A stretch of DNA of 18,317 nucleotides from a virus (lineage: Duplodnaviria; Heunggongvirae; Uroviricota; Caudoviricetes), in the IMG/VR virus record IMGVR_UViG_2519103024_000008; one strand, written 5' to 3'. Below the pieces are notes generated by a model. That model saw only the letters and a list, made by a program, of their open reading frames with translations, searched no databases and was not told the DNA's origin. A program made the translations under genes and the position numbers. Positions 1-12,542 of the stretch are shown here, one piece after another. How positions within the stretch are numbered: the stretch's first letter is position 1; each line of letters begins with the position of its first letter.

Positions 1-171
1 TCAATAAATCCCATCATTGCGATCAACCTCATCCTTAACCATTGATGCGAGCAGTTCTTCCAGTTTCTGCGCTGATAGCTTTACCTGGTGATCTTCAGCA
101 TCTTCCCGGGCTATTGTGGTTCGCGCAGTGGCTGATTTTGCTGACATCACCACAGGGGGCAGACGGACCAT
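1..171 (-). CDS. Hypothetical small protein, about 56 aa (48 aa if it starts at the ATG at 145-147)
   Basis: Minus-strand ORF ending with TGA at 1-3. ATG at 169-171 has GGAGG about 10 nt upstream (revcomp of 182-186). The longer 93-aa ORF in the track (to 282) would run through the hairpin at 238-270, so the shorter start is preferred. No recognisable family. Confidence 0.3.
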   Translation of the reverse strand: MVRLPPVVMSAKSATARTTIAREDAEDHQVKLSAQKLEELLASMVKDEVDRNDGIY

Positions 172-235
172 TGAACCATGGCCTCCGGAACAAATAAGGG
201 CAAAAATAACAACCACTATCGAAAGCTCACAAACT

Positions 236-451
236 AACCGCAGCACGTTCCTGCATACGACGTGTCTGCGGCATAATCCCAATGATTACTCCCTGACAGG
301 ATTTGCAGGCCACTCAATATCAGGTGCAGTTGATGTATCAACACGATTCAACAATACCCGATATTTATTCCATGCCTCCAGCAACGATCTTTCTTCCTCC
401 GTTGCGATTTCCAGATCTACAGCATCCTGCAGTGGCGCAATATACTCACTG
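236..451. repeat. Direct repeat copy A (about 215 bp): 3' end of a tfa-like gene plus downstream hairpin; partner at 1286-1500
   Basis: Aligned by eye to 1286-1500 at roughly 85-90% identity, with one indel in the hairpin arm. Both copies begin at a CCGCAGCACGT inverted-repeat element and extend through the last ~55 codons of a Tfa-family ORF. Confidence 0.7.
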
Positions 452-555
452 AATTCCTGGATGTAGAACTGTGTGGTGACGGTCTTCCAGCCATTCGGCT
501 CCTGCTGTATCGAAGCATACCAGGCTATTTCAATATCGCTATGCTGCGGCAGCAT
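286..555 (-). CDS. Tail fiber assembly protein family, truncated paralog (89 aa; C-terminal Tfa domain with an unrelated 35-aa N-terminus)
   Basis: The C-terminal ~54 aa ([51 protein letters not shown]) are near-identical to the C-terminus of the Tfa at 1335-1919. ATG at 553-555. The layout resembles tfaD-ybcY-tfaX of E. coli K-12 prophage DLP12 (from memory). Confidence 0.6.
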
Positions 556-611: not shown

Positions 612-1280
612 ATGGTGAAATCAATGAAAAAAAACACAGATGATGGGGCTAAAATTTACACACCACTTACCCTAAAGCTTTATGACTGGTGGGTTTTGGG
701 AGTATCAAATCGGCTTGCATGGGGATGTCCTACAAAGGAACACCTTCTTCCACACTTTCTGGAACATGTAGGTAACAACCATCTGGATATTGGTGTTGGA
801 ACTGGGTTTTACCTTACTCACGTACCTGAGAGTAGTCTGATATCTTTAATGGATTTGAACGAAGCTAGCCTGAACGCGGCATCTACAAGGGCTGGGGAAT
901 CAAAAATTAAACATAAAATTAGCCATGATGTTTTTGAACCTTATCCCGCGGCGTTACATGGTCAATTTGATTCCATTTCCATGTTTTACCTTCTTCACTG
1001 CCTGCCTGGAAATATATCTACAAAAAGCTGTGTAATACGCAATGCGGCGCAGGCCTTAACTGACGATGGAACTCTATACGGAGCCACAATTCTTGGCGAT
1101 GGAGTTGTGCACAATAGCTTCGGTCAAAAACTGATGCGCATTTACAATCAGAAAGGCATCTTTTCAAACACAAAAGATTCCGAAGAAGGCTTAACACATA
1201 TACTCTCAGAGCATTTCGAGAATGTTAAAACCAAGGTTCAAGGTACTGTAGTAATGTTTTCCGCTTCAGGGAAAAAATAG
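612..1280 (+). CDS. Class I SAM-dependent methyltransferase, YbcY-like prophage moron (222 aa; alternative start at 624)
   Basis: Glycine-rich motif I LDIGVGTGFY, followed by an acidic residue at the end of the next strand (SLISLMDLNE). Only plus-strand gene in the window, visibly AT-rich relative to flanking tail genes, and flanked by direct repeats. Position between two tfa-like genes matches ybcY of DLP12 (recalled). Confidence 0.7.
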   Translation: MVKSMKKNTDDGAKIYTPLTLKLYDWWVLGVSNRLAWGCPTKEHLLPHFLEHVGNNHLDIGVGTGFYLTHVPESSLISLMDLNEASLNAASTRAGESKIKHKISHDVFEPYPAALHGQFDSISMFYLLHCLPGNISTKSCVIRNAAQALTDDGTLYGATILGDGVVHNSFGQKLMRIYNQKGIFSNTKDSEEGLTHILSEHFENVKTKVQGTVVMFSASGKK

Positions 1281-1285
1281 CATCC

Positions 1286-1500
1286 AACCGCAGCACGTTC
1301 TTGCTTAAGACGTGCTGCGGCATAATCCCAATGATTACTCCCTGACAGGGTTCGTAGGCCACTCAATATCAGGTGCAGTTGATGTATCAACACGGTTCAG
1401 CAACACCCGATACTTTTTCCAGGCTTCCAGCAATGAGGTTTCTTCCTCCGTTGCAATTTCCAGATCTGCAGCATCCTGAAGCGGCGCAATATGCTCACTG
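1286..1500. repeat. Direct repeat copy B (about 215 bp): 3' end of tfa plus downstream hairpin; partner at 236-451
   Basis: See copy A. Covers tfa codons for ...[52 protein letters not shown] and about 49 nt downstream. Confidence 0.7.
1288..1320. terminator. Strong stem-loop between convergent methyltransferase (+) and tfa (-) genes; possible bidirectional terminator
   Basis: Perfect inverted repeat CCGCAGCACGT ... ACGTGCTGCGG (11 bp) with 3 further pairs inside the loop. On the minus strand it is followed within ~12 nt by TTTTTT (revcomp of 1272-1277). A degenerate copy lies at 238-270. Confidence 0.4.
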
Positions 1501-1919
1501 GCTACCTGCATCAGGTTGTTTTTTGTTTCTTCCGCCTCCCGGATCCGGAACATTTTTTCTGCTTCCGTATCCTTCACCCAGGCTGTGCCGTTCCACTTCT
1601 GAAACTCCCCTTCCGGCGATAACCAGGTAACATTTTCCGGTAACGGACCGAGTTCAGAAATAAATAACTCGTCCCCTGACGCTACGTCATAAACCGTTTT
1701 ACCCCGATGGTCTTCAACGAGATGCCACGATGCCTCATCACTGTTGAAAACAGCCACAAAGCCAGCAGGAATATCTGGTGGTGCAATATCGGTACTGTTT
1801 GCTGGCAGACCTGTATGAGGCGGAATATATGCGTCACCTTCACCAATAAATTCATTAGTTCCGGCCAGCAGATTATAAATTTTTATGGTCCGTGCTTGTT
1901 CACTCATTCTGAATGCCAT
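1335..1919 (-). CDS. tfa: Tail fiber assembly protein Tfa (194 aa)
   Basis: N-terminus [54 protein letters not shown] matches lambda Tfa as recalled. Its ATG (1917-1919) overlaps the stf stop TAA (1919-1921), implying translational coupling. Confidence 0.9.
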
Positions 1920-4900
1920 TATGCAAGCCTCACAATATAGTTAAATGCGATGTTTTTGACGGTGTTTTCCGCGTTACCAGCAGCGTTAACGGTGATGGTG
2001 TGTCCATGTGAACCAATCGCAACGGAGTGCGTATGCGCACCAATACCTACAGTATGTGCATGTGCGCCAGAACTTGCTGCAGTACCAGACAGCGAGTGGG
2101 TATGAGCACCTGCTGACTGTGTCTGAATACGTTGATAATACGATCTACGGGAAGAAGTCCCCGGGCTTACTTGATACTGTGAATCCTGGACATAAGTGAA
2201 CCCACCGCCATCATAAAATGCTAACGCAGAACCGCCGCCTCCTGGCCAACGAATACCATTACCATGAGTATGATCACCGGCAGACCCCGTAGAGCCACTC
2301 AGACTGTGCGTATGCGCCCCGGTGTTATTCGTGGATTTGGTTCCGTAATCAAACGACGATGTGTTTTTCGTCCCCAAATCCGTACTGGATGCGCTGGCGC
2401 TGTGGGTGTGCGATTTAATGCCGTCCTGTTCCTGAGACAATACGGCACGACCACTGGCGGGTTTGCCCTTAATCGTCCAGCCACGCATATCAGGGATCAC
2501 GCCTGACGGATAAGCGGCTGCAAGTTTTGGGTATGCAGATTTGTCAAAAGTCTGCCCCTGCATCAGGGCATAGCCAGACGGAACGGTATCTGATGGCCAC
2601 GGGATTGGTGCGCCAGGCGGATAAAACTGCTCTGATGGCGTATAGAGTGAATAAACTGTACCGTCCGTTAACCCTTCCGGCTTATTAGCAGAATATGCTG
2701 GTGACGTATGAATCGTCACGCTGGCATTACTGGTATAATCCCATTGAATATTTACACCAGTCGCATAATTTCCGATTGCAACGTAAATATCGTAAGTATC
2801 ACCAGATGTATTGACCCAGGCAAAATTTGTAAACCCTGTCGATGTGCGCTGCCATAAAGCACCAGTAATCCCCTTCGGATTACCATTACCTGCACGCAAA
2901 ACAAGTTCAGATATACCTGCCTGTTGAGGTGACCCCACGTTAAATCCCGCACCACCAATCAACGTAATTGAAACAACAGAACTCGCCTGTGGCATGGTTA
3001 CCGTTGCTAATTTGAACCAACCAGCACCACCGCTGAATGACATTGTTGTTGAGTTAAGCGTACCAATATCTTTCGGCGTCAGTGTTATATCCGCTGAAAG
3101 CGCCTTACCATTCACCTTACGGGCAGAAGGTACCCGACCATTCGCATTATTATTAGCTGCTTTCACTGCTTTCGGTGTCGCGGCAAGCGTTTCAGATGCG
3201 CTGTTNNNNNNNNNNNNNNNNNNNNNNNNNNNNNNNNNNNNNNNNNNNNNNNNNNNNNNNNNNNNNNNNNNNNNNNNNNNNNNNNNNNNNNNNNNNNNNN
3301 NNNNNNNNNNNNNNNNNNNNNNNNNNNNNNNNNNNNNNNNNNNNNNNNNNNNNNNNNNNNNNNNNNNNNNNNNNNNNNNNNNNNNNNNNNNNNNNNNNNN
3401 NNNNNNNNNNNNNNNNNNNNNNNNNNNNNNNNNNNNNNNNNNNNNNNNNNNNNNNNNNNNNNNNNNNNNNNNNNNNNNNNNNNNNNNNNNNNNNNNNNNN
3501 NNNNNNNNNNNNNNNNNNNNNNNNNNNNNNNNNNNNNNNNNNNNNNNNNNNNNNNNNNNNNNNNNNNNNNNNNNNNNNNNNNNNNNNNNNNNNNNNNNNN
3601 NNNNNNNNNNNNNNNNNNNNNNNNNNNNNNNNNNNNNNNNNNNNNNNNNNNNNNNNNNNNNNNNNNNNNNNNNNNNNNNNNNNNNNNNNNNNNNNNNNNN
3701 NNNNNNNNNNNNNNNNNNNNNNNNNNNNNNNNNNNNNNNNNNNNNNNNNNNNNNNNNNNNNNNNNNNNNNNNNNNNNNNNNNNNNNACTCGCGTCGTTGT
3801 CGTAGCGTCCTGAGCAGTATATTTCCCGTTAGCAAGGTCATAGGCTGCCTTTACCGACTTTGGCGTTGCCGCCAGCATTTCAGATGTGCTGTTGGTTGCA
3901 CTACTGAGCTGGACAATTCCTTTTTGTGCTGTCGTAGCGTCCTGAGCAGTATATTTCCCGTTAGCAAGGTCATAGGCTGCCTTTACCGACTTTGGCGTTG
4001 CCGCCAGCATTTCAGATGTGCTGTTGGTCGCGTTGCTAAGCTGAACTATCCCTTTCTGTGCTGTCGTTGCATCCTGTGCGGTGTATTTCCCGTTAGCCAG
4101 CTCATACGCGGCCTTAACGGCTTTTGGCGTTGCCGCCAGTGACTCGGAAGTGCTGTTAGTCGCACTGCTGAGCTGTACTATCCCCTTTTTCGTCGTGCTC
4201 GCATCCTCAAGCGCCACGGCGGATGCAATATCCTCTGCCCGTTTTGCCGCTGTCTCAGCGCGCGTTGCCGCGGATTCCGCCGTACTTTTGCTCTGAGCTG
4301 CCGCCGTCGCACTGCCAGCTGCCTCTGTCGCCTTCGTGGATGCCGTCGTGGCGCTGCCCTTTGCTGCTGACGCCTGTCTGGTCGCCTCATCTTTTGAAGC
4401 AGACGCAGATGATGCCGATGACGCCGCCGAACTGGCGGACGATGCGGCAGCCGTTTTTGAGGATTCTGCGCTGGTTTCCGACGCTTTCGCGTTCGTCTTG
4501 GATGTCTTCGCTGCGGAAGCAGACCTCGCTGCTGCGCTGGCCTGTACAGCGGCTTCGCCAGCCTTCGTTGTGGCTGTTGAAGCAGACGATGCAGCACTTT
4601 CTGCCGATTTTCCGGCGGCGGTGGCACTGGCTGAGGCCTGCCCGGCACTTGTTGACGCGGCACTGGCAGATAATGCAGCCGCTGTTTTTGAGTCTGCCGC
4701 AGCTGAGGCGCTCTGTCCCGCTGCCGTTTCAGAAGACCTGGCGTTCGTCTCGGACGTTTTTGCCGCCTTCGCAGAATTTGCTGCCGCCGTTGCCGAGGAA
4801 GCTGCGCTGCTGGCGCTCGAGGCTGCGTTCGTTTCTGATGATTTTGCCGCCTCTTTTGAAGCCGACGCATCCCGTGCTGAAGTGGCTGCTTCTGACGCTT

Positions 4901-5582
4901 TCGTGGTCGCGGTGGATGCAGAAGTGGCTGCTGATTGTTGTGACGCTGCGGCATTCGTTTCTGACGTTTTCGCGGCACTGGCGCTGGTAGCTGCCGCGCT
5001 TTTTGATGACTCTGCAGCAGCAGCACTTTTTGCTGCTTCACGGGCCTTTGTCGATGCCGTTCCTGCGCTGGAAGACGCTGACTGAGCCGACGACGCGGCC
5101 TGTCCGGCTGACGTGCTGGCGGCACGTGCTGAGGCTGCAGCATCGGTTGCATGAGTTGCCGCCTCGCTGGCTGATGCACTGGCATCGCTGGCTGATTTTT
5201 TCGCGGCTGCCGTATTCTGTGCAACCGCGGAGGCGTTACGTGACACCTCTTCCACCATCTGCTCAAAGCGGCGCAGTGCCTCCGGTCGGACATCATCCTC
5301 CGTCATGGCACCGAGAAAATCATTCAGCGTACCTGGTCTGGAACCTTCATAGACGGTAATGGTCCCGGCATGTGAAGGCGGAAAACCTTCAACCAGCAGG
5401 GTGACGCTGTACTGACCATGCTCAACATCCATGCTGTAACGTCCGGCTTCATCCGGATTTTCAGAGGCCACCGTGTTCACCACCACCGTGCTGCTGGTTC
5501 GTCTGGCCTTCAGCACAATGGTGCAGTTCTGTACTGGTTTTCCTGTGCCATCTTTAAGCACGCCAGAAATTTTTACTGTCAT
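1919..5582 (-). CDS. stf: Side tail fiber protein Stf, interrupted by assembly gap 3206-3786
   Basis: N-terminus [28 protein letters not shown], a long Ala/Ser/Thr-rich low-complexity region, 44-aa [44 protein letters not shown] repeats, and a His-rich C-terminus ([58 protein letters not shown]), all typical of lambda Stf / T4 gp37-type fibers. ATG at 5580-5582. Confidence 0.85.
3206..3786. other. Assembly gap (581 N) inside stf
   Basis: Run of N read directly from the sequence; it abuts a near-identical 132-bp tandem repeat array. Confidence 1.
3787..4196. repeat. Coding tandem repeat array in stf, unit 132 bp (44 aa), at least 3 units (3801-3932, 3933-4064, 4065-4196) plus a partial unit at the gap edge
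   Basis: Units 1 and 2 are nearly identical at DNA level; unit 3 is more diverged. A related motif ([17 protein letters not shown]) reappears on the far side of the gap near 3150-3205. Confidence 0.85.
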
Positions 5583-6400: not shown

Positions 6401-9400
6401 TCAGCTGATACTGATGCCTGCGGTGGCTTTCTTCATCACCACAACCAGCAAATCGCTGATACTTGCTGTGGGATACCAGTTATTCACCAGCCATGCTGAC
6501 ACCGAAAACTCCAGCGTCATGTGGCCGCGACCAGCTGGCATATCAATAACACCACTGTAAATCAGCGTATTATCCAGCGCGGTACGGTTATAAATTTCAG
6601 CACCGTTTTTCCGTACTATCAGGCGGCATGACGAATAAATATCGTTATTCTCCCGCTCATGTTTAGCGCCGCTGAATGCCACCGCCGGAATAACAATCTG
6701 CCGGTCAAACGGCTGATCGTCATAAACCCTGACGGTGATGGTCCCTGATGGCCACCGTTCCGGTGCACGGGAGTCCCGGGGGAAAGCTTTGCCCACTGTT
6801 TTAACGAGATCGCCTTCAATCTGGTTGGCGGACAATTTTCCCAGAACCCGACAGTTCTCGTTAATCGTGACGTTGTTGAGCGTCCCGGAGTTCGCATTCA
6901 CGTTACCGCTGATATCGGCATTTTTCGCCGTCAGCCGCCCGTCCGGTGTCAGGGAAAATGCCGGAGGATTACCGCCGCTGGTAATGGTCGGAGCCGTCAG
7001 GCGTTTCAGGAACACGTCGTTCATGAATATCTGATCGCCCTGACCAACAAACATCGGCTTTGTGTTGCCATTCGCAGGATTAATCATCGCAATCCGGTCA
7101 GCAGCCAGAAGCACCTGACTCTGCATACCTGCTGGCGTATTCTCAATACCGGCTCCGATACCCGCAATATAAAGGCGTCCGTCCTTCATCTGCTGCAGTT
7201 TCACGGCCCACATGCTGTTCAGGTTATTATTTGTATCAACCTGAACTTTCTGTATCTGCTGGATTGCCGCACTCTGGTCTTCCAGTTTTTTATTGACGGT
7301 CTGCGTGATTTCATTGCTGACATTCGTAATGGACGTCCTGATTTCAGCCAGGTCCGGCGCAAGCTGACCGTTATCAATCTGCGTCCACAACTCCTGGGCC
7401 AGATGTGTTTTCCCGATTTCTCCTTTGAAAAAATCCAGGTAACCTTCCGCATCATCGCTCGCCCGACCGACAGCCTCCACGAATGCCGATTTGCCAACGG
7501 TGTTCACACTGCGAACGTAAAAATAATAATCATGGCCCGGTTTGATATTGATACTGGCGGCTATCCAGTACAGCGCCGTACCAAGATAGCGGGCTGTGGT
7601 TTCAACCTGCCTGATATCGGTAATCCGCTTTTCCGAGAACCAGAACTCAAACTGTACCGTCGGGTCATAAACAGCAAGATGCGGCGTGGCGGTTATCTGA
7701 AAATAGCCCGGCGTCAGCTCAATCCTCGACGGTGCTGCCGGTGCGGCAATCCGGAACGATACCGACGCCGGATCGCCCTGCTGCCCCCGGGCATTTACCG
7801 CCCGGACTGTCAGCCTGTAGTTCCCCAGCGCCAGTTGCGTGAAGCGGTATGTGGTTTCCGTCGTCCGGGCCGTGCTGACCAGTCGCTCACTGCCGTCGTC
7901 CGCTGTTACGGTCAGACGGAGCAGGAAGCTCACGCCCTTCACCACCTTCGGTGTGTCCCATCGCGCCAGCACCTGATATTCCCCGCTGTCTGCAGTGACT
8001 TCGGCGGTCAGGTGCTGCACTGCTGGCGGCGTGACACCATTCACCGTGCCGCTCTGGTCACCGTCAAAGTGCGCCCCGTTATCCACGATGGCTTCTTTCT
8101 CCGGTACATGCTGCACGGCGGTGATGGCATACGTGCCGTCATCGTTCTCACGGATACTCACGCAGCGGAACAGGCGCTGGCGCAGCGTCGGCAGCTTCAG
8201 CCCCCACACGCTGTATTCTGCAACGCCGTCAGGAACACGGCTCACTTTCACCTTCACGCCGTCGGTGACGGACTGGACCTCCACGCTGACCGGATTACCC
8301 TGACCGTCAACCAGGCTTATCAGCGTGGTACCGGAGGATGGCAGCGTGATTTCACGGTCGAGCGTCAGCGTCCGGGTCTGGCTGTTCACCGCCAGCACGC
8401 GCCCGCCAATGCTGATCCCCGCATAGTCATCATCGCAGATTTCAATAACATCACCCGGTACATGGCGAAGCCCTTCTGCGCCGACGCTGAAATCCACGGT
8501 CTGCGTCTCCAGCAGTTCCGTTTAATCAGCCACAGCCCGGCGCGGTGTGCCTGCCCCCGGCTGGTCAGCCAAAGGCATCCATCTTCGTGACGTTACGACC
8601 GTAACGGGCAATGGCCTGCGTGTCCTCCACAGCTCTGTCNCCGTCTCCCAGCCGTTATCCGGTCAATCCAGTTCANNNNNNNNNNNNNNNNNNNNNNNNN
8701 NNNNNNNNNNNNNNNNNNNNNNNNNNNNNNNNNNNNNNNNNNNNNNNNNNNNNNNNNNNNNNNNNNNNNNNNNNNNNNNNNNNNNNNNNNNNNNNNNNNN
8801 NNNNNNNNNNNNNNNNNNNNNNNNNNNNNNNNNNNNNNNNNNNNNNNNNNNNNNNNNNNNNNNNNNNNNNNNNNNNNNNNNNNNNNNNNNNNNNNNNNNN
8901 NNNNNNNNNNNNNNNNNNNNNNNNNNNNNNNNNNNNNNNNNNNNNNNNNNNNNNNNNNNNNNNNNNNNNNNNNNNNNNNNNNNNNNNNNNNNNNNNNNNN
9001 NNNNNNNNNNNNNNNNNNNNNNNNNNNNNNNNNNNNNNNNNNNNNNNNNNNNNNNNNNNNNNNNNNNNNNNNNNNNNNNNNNNNNNNNNNNNNNNNNNNN
9101 NNNNNNNNNNNNNNNNNNNNNNNNNNNNNNNNNNNNNNNNNNNNNNNNNNNNNNNNNNNNNNNNNNNNNNNNNNNNNNNNNNNNNNNNNNNNNNNNNNNN
9201 NNNNNNNNNNNNNNNNNNNNNNNNNNNNNNNNNNNNNNNNNNNNNNNNNNNNNNNNNNNNNNNNNNNNNNNNNNNNNNNNNNNNNNNNNNNNNNNNNNNN
9301 NNNNNNNNNNNNNNNNNNNNNNNNNNNNNNNNNNNNNNNNNNNNNNNNNNNNNNNNNNNNNNNNNNNNNNNNNNNNNNNNNNNNNNNNNNNNNNNNNNNN

Positions 9401-9926
9401 NNNNNNNNNNNNNNNNNNNNNNNNNNNNNNNNNNNNNNNNNNNNNNNNNNNNNNNNNNNNNNNNNNNNNNNNNNNNNNNNNNNNNNNNNNNNNNNNNNNN
9501 CTGGATCTGAACCAGCAGGCGGACTTCCGACGGATTCCTGTCCTCCTTTGAGGTGGTTTCCACCAGTGCCTGCACACCGAAGGTAAAGCGCAGACGGTCG
9601 ATGTTTGCCGACGTGATGGTCCGGGTGATCGGCGTGTCATATTTCACTTCCGTACCCAGCACCGTCTCGGAGCCGGAGGATTCAAATCCCTCCGGCGGTG
9701 TCTGCTCCTGCTCACCTGCCCGGAACACCACCGTGACACCGGATATATTGGTATTCCCCTCACTGTCCAGCACCGGCGTACTGTTCAGCAGCACGCTTTT
9801 TAATCCGTCCACCGGACCTTCAACCGGCCCTTCGCTGATGGCATCGATCACACTCAGCAGCTGCGTGGACTTCAGGTTGTCCCTCGCTTCGCGCGGGGTA
9901 TGCCCCTTACTGCTTCCTTTACCCAT
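6401..9926 (-). CDS. J: Tail tip / host-specificity protein J (central tail fiber), interrupted by gap 8676-9500 and with frame breaks in 8498-8675
   Basis: N-terminus [54 protein letters not shown] and the long central region match lambda J as recalled. SD GAGGA precedes the ATG at 9924-9926. The last ~150 aa differ from lambda. The frame is restored by assuming 4 single-base deletions next to the gap. Confidence 0.85.
8676..9500. other. Assembly gap (825 N) inside J; isolated ambiguous base at 8640
   Basis: Run of N read directly from the sequence. Confidence 1.
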
Positions 9927-11788: not shown

Positions 11789-12542
11789 NNNNNNNNNNNN
11801 NNNNNNNNNNNNNNNNNNNNNNNNNNNNNNNNNNNNNNNNNNNNNNNNNNNNNNNNNNNNNNNNNNNNNNNNNNNNNNNNNNNNNNNNNNNNNNNNNNNN
11901 NNNNNNNNNNNNNNNNNNNNNNNNNNNNNNNNNNNNNNNNNNNNNNNNNNNNNNNNNNNNNNNNNNNNNNNNNNNNNNNNNNNNNNNNNNNNNNNNNNNN
12001 NNNNNNNNNNNNNNNNNNNNNNNNNNNNNNNNNNNNNNNNNNNNNNNNNNNNNNNNNNNNNNNNNNNNNNNNNNNNNNNNNNNNNNNNNNNNNNNNNNNN
12101 NNNNNNNNNNNNNNNNNNNNNNNNNNNNNNNNNNNNNNNNNNNNNNNNNNNNNNNNNNNNNNNNNNNNNNNNNNNNNNNNNNNNNNNNNNNNNNNNNNNN
12201 NNNNNNNNNNNNNNNNNNNNNNNNNNNNNNNNNNNNNNNNNNNNNNNNNNNNNNNNNNNNNNNNNNNNNNNNNNNNNNNNNNNNNNNNNNNNNNNNNNNN
12301 NNNNNNNNNNNNNNNNNNNNNNNNNNNNNNNNNNNNNNNNNNNNNNNNNNNNNNNNNNNNNNNNNNNNNNNNNNNNNNNNNNNNNNNNNNNNNNNNNNNN
12401 NNNNNNNNNNNNNNNNNNNNNNNNNNNNNNNNNNNNNNNNNNNNNNNNNNNNNNNNNNNNNNNNNNNNNNNNNNNNNNNNNNNNNNNNNNNNNNNNNNNN
12501 NNNNNNNNNNNNNNNNNNNNNNNNNNNNNNNNNNNNNNNNNN
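11789..12542. other. Assembly gap (754 N) covering the M 3' end and most of L
   Basis: Run of N read directly from the sequence. Confidence 1.

Follow-up and report, generated by a model that had tools for sequence, protein, structure and literature searches.

Close to the end of a side tail fibre gene in the virus record IMGVR_UViG_2519103024_000008 (Caudoviricetes), a glycine-rich segment is found among repeated His-x-His (HxH) motifs. Does this segment interrupt a metal-binding fibre tip, or does it belong to the tip as the part that meets the host cell? The window, by which we mean the whole stretch of 18,317 nucleotides (nt) that was analysed, encodes on its minus strand (3205..1922) a stop-free fragment of 428 residues, the last part of a lambda-type side tail fibre (Stf). 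Residues are numbered below from the start of this fragment. We consider it highly probable (roughly 85%) that the fragment is the distal half of the lambda-type side tail fibre of an E. coli prophage, with a gp37-type needle that carries a swappable receptor-binding head. This reading is carried by the homology of the tip, its motif register, the cassette pattern of its variation, the breakpoints of that variation and the distribution of the head.

HxH motifs and needle register

Seven HxH motifs are present, all of them confined to the last ~165 residues of the fragment, and 14 of the 15 histidines of the 428 residues fall within them. Such a number was reached by none of 100,000 shuffles, whether the 428 residues or the last 170 were shuffled (maxima 5 and 6, respectively). 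A previous description made from the letters of the DNA, called here the sequence-only reading, had listed six of these motifs. Their repetition is real and lies far above chance, but the count is seven, one HTHS having been missed. The tip is arranged as follows.

2471..2614, minus strand: phage tail collar domain, residues 198-245 (PF07484, E=2e-12)
2264..2431, minus strand: descending strand of the needle, residues 259-314, with HxH1, the SFDYGTK Phage_fiber repeat, HxH2 and HxH3
2402-2410, minus strand: HxH1, HTHS at residue 266
2306-2314, minus strand: HxH2, HTHS at residue 298
2264-2272, minus strand: HxH3, HTHG at residue 312
2105..2263, minus strand: head or tip subdomain, allele "A", residues 315-367 (53 residues), at the position of the T4 tip subdomain
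1922..2104, minus strand: ascending strand of the needle and C-terminal collar piece, residues 368-428, with HxH4 to HxH7
2096-2104, minus strand: HxH4, HTHS at residue 368
2054-2062, minus strand: HxH5, HAHT at residue 382
2027-2035, minus strand: HxH6, HTHS at residue 391
2000-2008, minus strand: HxH7, HGHT at residue 400

The tip was compared with that of T4 gp37 (PDB entry 2XGF; domains D10/D11). In a phmmer search of the PDB, residues 181-428 matched residues 15-242 of the chain 2xgf_A with E=6.5e-83, and all seven HxH motifs pair with T4 HxH motifs in the alignment. The motifs are spaced by 32 and 14 residues before the head, 56 across it and 14, 9 and 9 after it, compared with 32 and 14, 37, and 14, 9 and 9 in T4, and in both proteins 28 residues remain to the C-terminus. 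The 16 residues of the conserved C-terminus are identical in this Stf, T4 and lambda. Sequence conservation with lambda and T4 begins, on the left, at the collar domain, which stands directly before the needle. Identity with T4 and lambda is 81% and 90%, respectively, for collar and descending strand together, and 75% and 90% for the ascending strand. The likeness to a metal-coordinating tip of the gp37 type, which had been noticed before, is upheld by this match and by the shared spacing, and homology of the HxH region with the metal-coordinating needle of T4 gp37 is supported at the level of sequence. In T4 the needle holds seven irons bound by the HxH histidines (PMC6957217).

Lambda Stf has eight HxH motifs in total. 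It contains two additional units, one of 10 residues with FDYGTK in the descending strand and one of 9 residues with HxH in the ascending strand, at positions 283-292 and 386-394 of the alignment. Such paired insertions would add one layer to the needle and keep the two strands in register. As judged from the alignments, the needle register of the fibre studied here is T4-like rather than lambda-like.

The head between HxH3 and HxH4

The glycine-rich segment quoted in the sequence-only reading is found verbatim at residues 317-363 (2117..2257, minus strand). It makes up most of the head, which spans the 53 residues from HxH3 to HxH4 and contains 11 glycines, nine of them among its first 22 residues, together with eight aromatic residues. 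The net charge is +2 per chain, like that of the lambda head. In T4, residues 932-959 form the tip subdomain, which is inserted into the stem right after a His motif that includes H929; this subdomain binds OmpC and lipopolysaccharide (LPS) (PMC6957217). The segment lies at exactly this position and is the fibre's head. The earlier statement that the segment lies between the motifs is thus correct, whereas the idea of an interruption is not, since all members of the family, among them lambda and T4, have a canonical head at the same place. We presume that the head forms the receptor-binding apex.

The sequence of the head differs from those of both references. In T4 the distance from HxH3 to HxH4 is 34 residues versus 53 here, and the sequences are unrelated; lambda Stf has a different segment of 45 residues at the head position. 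When alignment is forced, identity is 24% with the head of T4 and 27% with that of lambda, compared with 75-90% in the flanks. The alignment with Stf and gp37 homologs therefore agrees with the claim that this segment is not in lambda Stf: the two segments are not identical, with 27% identity against 90% in the flanks. A foreign insertion, an intein and a diversity-generating target were also considered, and were ruled out by the canonical position of the head, by the discrete head classes in relatives and by the absence of any extra element.

Exchange of heads on a common scaffold

Relatives were collected by searching 1.84 billion cluster representatives without a profile, which returned 2,235 matches, and the best 150 of these were parsed. 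Among these 150, at least 15 distinct head classes of 32-53 residues occur on the same scaffold of three plus four HxH motifs, and head A, with 53 residues, is the longest of them. Proteins that are 86-89% identical over all 428 residues differ essentially by the head alone (RDGRRFNPSVF..., KSSGAFGGTNTS... and TVPLRRPNSGG...). The module upstream of the collar, domain X, occurs together with three other heads, and head A in turn follows several kinds of upstream part. Since heads are exchanged on the same 428 residues and head A stands behind varied upstream parts, head, tip and upstream domain assort independently.

The same pattern is seen in the DNA, which was compared in bins of 30 nt with lambda, ev099, PhiR26_1 and PhiR29_1. 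Identity to these lambdoid relatives is at background level up to residue ~200, rises to ~90% or more from residue ~200 to ~300-310, falls to background again over residues ~311-370, and is high once more from residue ~365-400 to the stop codon and through the downstream gene tfa. The tfa DNA is 90-100% identical among relatives with different heads. Phage 204576 has the same head and is near-identical from residue 200 on. The mosaic tip proposed in the sequence-only reading is confirmed by this drop of identity at the head between highly similar flanks; in sequence terms, the tip is a mosaic.

In an ungapped count from the 3' end, the borders of similarity on the right-hand side lie at residue ~365 for ev099, at 382-383 for PhiR26_1 and PhiR29_1, and at 400 for JL22. 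These borders are at or near HxH4, HxH5 and HxH7, and are consistent with homologous recombination in the conserved boxes that encode the HxH motifs as the route of exchange. The idea of a "His box" in T-even fibres was reportedly put forward by Tetart, Krisch and colleagues. The chaperone encoded by tfa (Caudo_TAP family) is nearly invariant across head alleles, and it is for this reason that the fibre itself can be taken to carry the determinant of specificity.

Distribution of head A

The 159-nt head was found at an identity of at least 95% in 720 of 5,426 complete E. coli genomes (~13%), while tip flanks of the same type occur in 3,945 of the 5,426. The carriers of head A include UTI89, S88, APEC O1, IHE3034, NU14, the type strain ATCC 11775, an enterotoxigenic (ETEC) strain and a strain of sequence type (ST) 648. 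The type strain of E. albertii has head A as well. In the phage records, searched both as DNA and as protein, head A is present in only two of 50,697, both unannotated.

A few polymorphisms were observed within head A. In the comparison with phage 204576 and E. albertii NBRC 107761 they replace amino acids and recur at two or three positions (Q340K, D341N, G349E, R353S/Y). The window and phage 204576 differ in the head by three nucleotides, all of them non-synonymous (D341N, R353Y), and the open reading frame (ORF) stays open. The polymorphic positions may mark residues in contact with the receptor.

A separate scan of genome_contigs with a degenerate head pattern found E. albertii only. It missed ATCC 11775, although a 100% identical head from this strain is present in ecoli_genomes; either the stretch is masked in genome_contigs, or another genome represents E. 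coli there.

Gene layout and upstream modules

The whole stf gene begins at 5582 on the minus strand, and the 428-residue fragment is its 3' part. The upper boundary of the fragment, 3205, is set by a run of 581 N within stf and does not coincide with a domain border. The stop codon TAA occupies 1921..1919 and is overlapped by the start codon of tfa as TAATG. Besides the tip, the following parts were recognised.

3787..5582, minus strand: N-terminal part of Stf, 598-599 residues, with the PF08400 attachment domain, an Ala/Ser-rich shaft and Phage_fiber_2 repeats
3206..3786, no strand: run of 581 N in stf, a masking or assembly gap
3125..3205, minus strand: end of the last Phage_fiber_2 repeat, residues 1-27 (PF03406, E=1.1e-07)
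2621..3145, minus strand: domain X, residues 21-195, a beta-sandwich fibre module (AlphaFold2 and Foldseek)
1335..1919, minus strand: tfa, tail fibre assembly chaperone (Caudo_TAP, PF02413, E=1.3e-44)

In the Pfam search, the prophage tail fibre N-terminal domain PF08400 was found with E=2.5e-70, PF03406 three times in the N-terminal part, as three full 44-residue Phage_fiber_2 repeats followed by the start of a fourth, and PF03335 also in Stf. The N-terminus is 84% identical to residues 1-286 of lambda Stf, and Tfa is 94% identical to lambda Tfa. The gene is located between lom and tfa, downstream of J, in the order J-lom-stf-tfa. On account of PF08400, of lom and J upstream, and of the identities of the N-terminus and Tfa with lambda, the gene is a genuine lambda-type stf of a lambdoid prophage, as the sequence-only reading had assumed for the distal domain. 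In RefSeq it is labelled "prophage tail fiber N-terminal domain-containing protein" (WP_000216497.1, WP_016230679.1).

Domain X (residues ~21-195, ~175 residues) is a second non-lambda module, which had been overlooked before and has no counterpart in lambda Stf. It matched no Pfam family and no PDB sequence. The AlphaFold2 model is an all-beta sandwich with a predicted local distance difference test score (pLDDT) of 77.7 and a predicted template modelling score (pTM) of 0.72. Foldseek matched this model with the WceF tailspike-like structure 6TGF (TMq 0.60, E=7e-7), with Acinetobacter phage tailspikes and, in BFVD, with many tail fibres and exopolysaccharide (EPS) depolymerases. Domain X also matches PHROG 3299/21552/6722; the stf of the P1-like phage JL22 contains it as well, and many proteins combine it with other tips. 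It seems to be a commonplace spacer or knob module of the fibre.

Proposed mode of action and receptor

Along the fibre, the attachment domain is followed by the shaft, the 44-residue repeats, domain X as a beta-sandwich spacer, the collar and the gp37-type needle. Each chain would pass down through HxH1-3, turn in the 53-residue head and return through HxH4-7. By homology to T4 gp37, three chains would form a six-stranded needle, and in each layer of three HxH motifs six histidines would bind one iron octahedrally, to give seven ions in total. The three heads would form an apex that touches the cell surface in a reversible first adsorption, and Tfa may help to fold the conserved part of the tip. 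The near-invariant DNA of the HxH boxes on both sides of the head would provide a foothold for homologous recombination. In this way heads could be exchanged among lambdoid, P1-like and T-even phages, with the needle register undisturbed.

Several receptors have been described for related fibres. T4 uses OmpC and the glucose of LPS (PMC6957217), and PhiNP, one of more than 200 T4/lambda-like receptor-binding proteins that diverge exactly at the head site, uses LPS GlcII (PMC9659904). Ur-lambda Stf binds OmpC (PMC12617516), and unmodified O16 antigen is perhaps also a receptor of Ur-lambda (PMC11990801). Gifsy-1 Stf, which is reported to be 51% identical to Ur-lambda Stf, binds Gal II of the LPS core (PMC12312913). 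Another study concerns the central fibre and not Stf (PMC12502783). In the literature searched, no receptor was found for head A or for the related PhiR and mEp phages. Like other members of the family, head A most likely recognises the surface of an outer-membrane porin or a sugar of the LPS core, and the target probably differs from the exact target of lambda. Given what has been learnt about the family, a different specificity is plausible.

It is possible, though we do not favour it, that head A shares its receptor class, namely OmpC, with lambda and T4, and that the head tracks the allelic variation of OmpC or the shielding by LPS among E. coli lineages. The scaffold is the same as in lambda and T4, and the net charge of +2 per chain, as in the lambda head, would fit a negatively charged cavity of OmpC into which the Ur-lambda Stf tip (and, according to that paper, T4 gp37) is reported to dock (PMC12617516). 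The carriers of head A also belong to many lineages (ST95-type extraintestinal pathogenic E. coli (ExPEC) such as UTI89, S88 and APEC O1; ETEC; ST648) and extend to E. albertii, as would be expected of a conserved receptor. However, head A cannot be meaningfully aligned with the heads of lambda or T4 (24-27% identity when forced), single substitutions in the T4 tip switch the use of OmpC or LPS, or the host (PMC6957217), and other members of the family bind LPS core sugars (PMC9659904).

Head A is the most glycine- and aromatic-rich head on a needle of T4 register. It is conceivable, but we hold it to be unlikely, that head A forms an enlarged apex with an extra beta-hairpin layer and recognises a surface molecule that is new as a receptor of gp37-type tips, such as another protein of the outer membrane or a type of LPS core characteristic of extraintestinal pathogenic E. 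coli.

Evidence against the proposed reading and intactness of the gene

Some observations weigh against a needle of the gp37 type with an exchangeable receptor-binding head. The trimer, the iron binding, the receptor contact and the specificity are what we infer from related fibres. The AlphaFold2 model of the tip as a monomer (residues 181-428, from an alignment of 36 sequences) is poor, with a mean pLDDT of 54 and a pTM of 0.21; the head falls below 50 and secondary structure is almost absent. A tblastn search of the 50,697 phage records for more distant relatives of the head, at E values as high as 10, gave nothing beyond the two near-identical records and noise. As head A has no detectable phage relatives, no transfer by homology is possible for the head itself. 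Lastly, stf contains the 581 N, and the reading frames on the two sides of this run differ by 1.

The model of the tip was set aside, because a poor result is expected for a single chain taken from an intertwined trimer. It could nevertheless be cited for the view that the glycine-rich segment lacks a defined fold, being a flexible linker or insertion of low complexity, and that binding takes place elsewhere, for example in domain X or Tfa. The nine glycines in the first 22 residues of the head and its pLDDT below 50 agree with such a linker, and domain X does resemble modules of tailspikes and depolymerases. We regard this view as very improbable. The position of the segment is precisely that of the hairpin turn at which the T4 structure shows a folded tip subdomain, which is itself glycine-rich and contains essential glycines (PMC6957217). 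Head A contains eight aromatic residues and is strongly conserved, and the low pLDDT spans the whole monomer model of the tip, needle included.

The run of N raises a different question, namely whether the prophage is defective and this copy of stf a dead relic, with no fibre made and hence no current function for the head. The run interrupts stf with a change of frame, the 11 nt preceding it match no other genome, and further tfa fragments lie downstream in relatives. The sequence around the run was therefore compared with complete genomes. On its 5' side (in the direction of the gene), stf is the same as that of E. coli ATCC 11775 over 1785 nt with no difference, and on the 3' side one of 1287 nt differs. 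In ATCC 11775 the flanks of this position are joined in frame by only 36 nt, in an intact Stf of 1035 residues, and CEA212U also has an intact full-length stf, of 991 residues. The 11 nt directly before the N (ACGACGCGAGT) have no match in ATCC 11775, and the ACGACGCGAGT junction was found neither in complete E. coli genomes nor, by exact scan, in genome_contigs. When the 175 nt that precede the run were searched in complete genomes, the matches ended 11-12 nt short of the N.

The run lies within 132-nt tandem repeats, the copy number of which ranges from 3 to 7 among relatives. The 44-residue (132-nt) Phage_fiber_2 copies (3787..4150 and relatives) number three in CEA212U, four in ATCC 11775, and six and seven in two other E. 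coli proteins. Proteins that differ in the number of copies are otherwise near-identical, and since this number varies, the length of the fibre varies in steps. An artefact of assembly or masking is the likeliest explanation of the run, and a disrupting insertion is possible.

A relic is, on balance, improbable. The flanks of the run are identical to, or one nucleotide off, the intact 1035-residue genes of complete genomes, and the run falls in tandem repeats of varying copy number, which are a classic problem of assembly. The head is kept at an identity of at least 95% in 720 genomes, and all three differences from phage 204576 in the head change amino acids with the ORF open.

Comparison with related fibres and practical value

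The T4 gp37 tip shares with this Stf the collar, the seven HxH motifs, the position of the head after HxH3 and the dependence on a downstream chaperone. The two systems differ upstream of the collar, where a lambda-type Stf is found here and the distal half fibre of the T-even type in T4, and also in the chaperone, which is a lambda-type Tfa here and gp38 in T4. The 3' end of T4 g37 and g38 have been described as derived from lambda-like phages (PMC3157838). Ur-lambda Stf (orf-401 + orf-314) with its Tfa has the same gene order, with the identities given above for the N-terminus (84%), the flanks of the needle (90%) and Tfa (94%). The lambda needle, however, is one layer longer, with eight HxH motifs and the extra FDYGTK unit, and bears the other head of 45 residues. 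The middle of lambda Stf also differs, as it has no domain X and a single Phage_fiber_2 repeat.

The family described by Magaziner and Salmond in 2022 (PhiNP ORF6 and more than 200 phage fibres; PMC9659904) has a distal tip of ~215 residues and a linked chaperone in common with this fibre. Its divergence is confined to the site equivalent to T4 932-965, like that of this Stf, but head A is not among the characterised members. In fibres of the T2/T6 type with gp38, modular exchange of tips between conserved motifs likewise alters the host range (PMC3157838). There, the receptor is bound by gp38, a separate protein that remains on the tip, whereas the downstream gene here encodes the Caudo_TAP chaperone.

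The architecture, the metal-binding motifs and the mosaic variation are all established, the gene is common and already annotated, and the case is a textbook one. Its practical value is modest and lies in an uncharacterised, widespread head cassette on the exact needle register of T4. Fibre tips of the gp37/Stf type are a main determinant of host range, and heads bounded by HxH boxes are natural plug-in cassettes. Prophage Stf domains are being screened as lambda chimeras for the delivery of DNA (PMC11338833; bioRxiv 10.1101/2025.02.28.640725). Head A, present in ~13% of complete E. coli genomes, including ExPEC, and nearly absent from phage records, is a reasonable candidate for such screens. 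If its receptor were indeed new, the exact T4 register could allow head A to be inserted in T4 g37 or Ur-lambda stf in order to retarget particles.

Neighbouring genes

Directly downstream of tfa, on the opposite strand (612..1280, plus), there is a gene for a class I S-adenosylmethionine (SAM)-dependent methyltransferase, which is YbcY-like in the records of the PhiR phages. It is probably a moron at the end of the prophage. In relatives this gene is followed by further tfa fragments and an ompW remnant beside yciEFG and trp (the side of the window at 1..555), and the ompW remnant may mark the site of integration. Further runs of N are found inside tail genes of the window, at 8640, 8676..9500 and 11789..12542.

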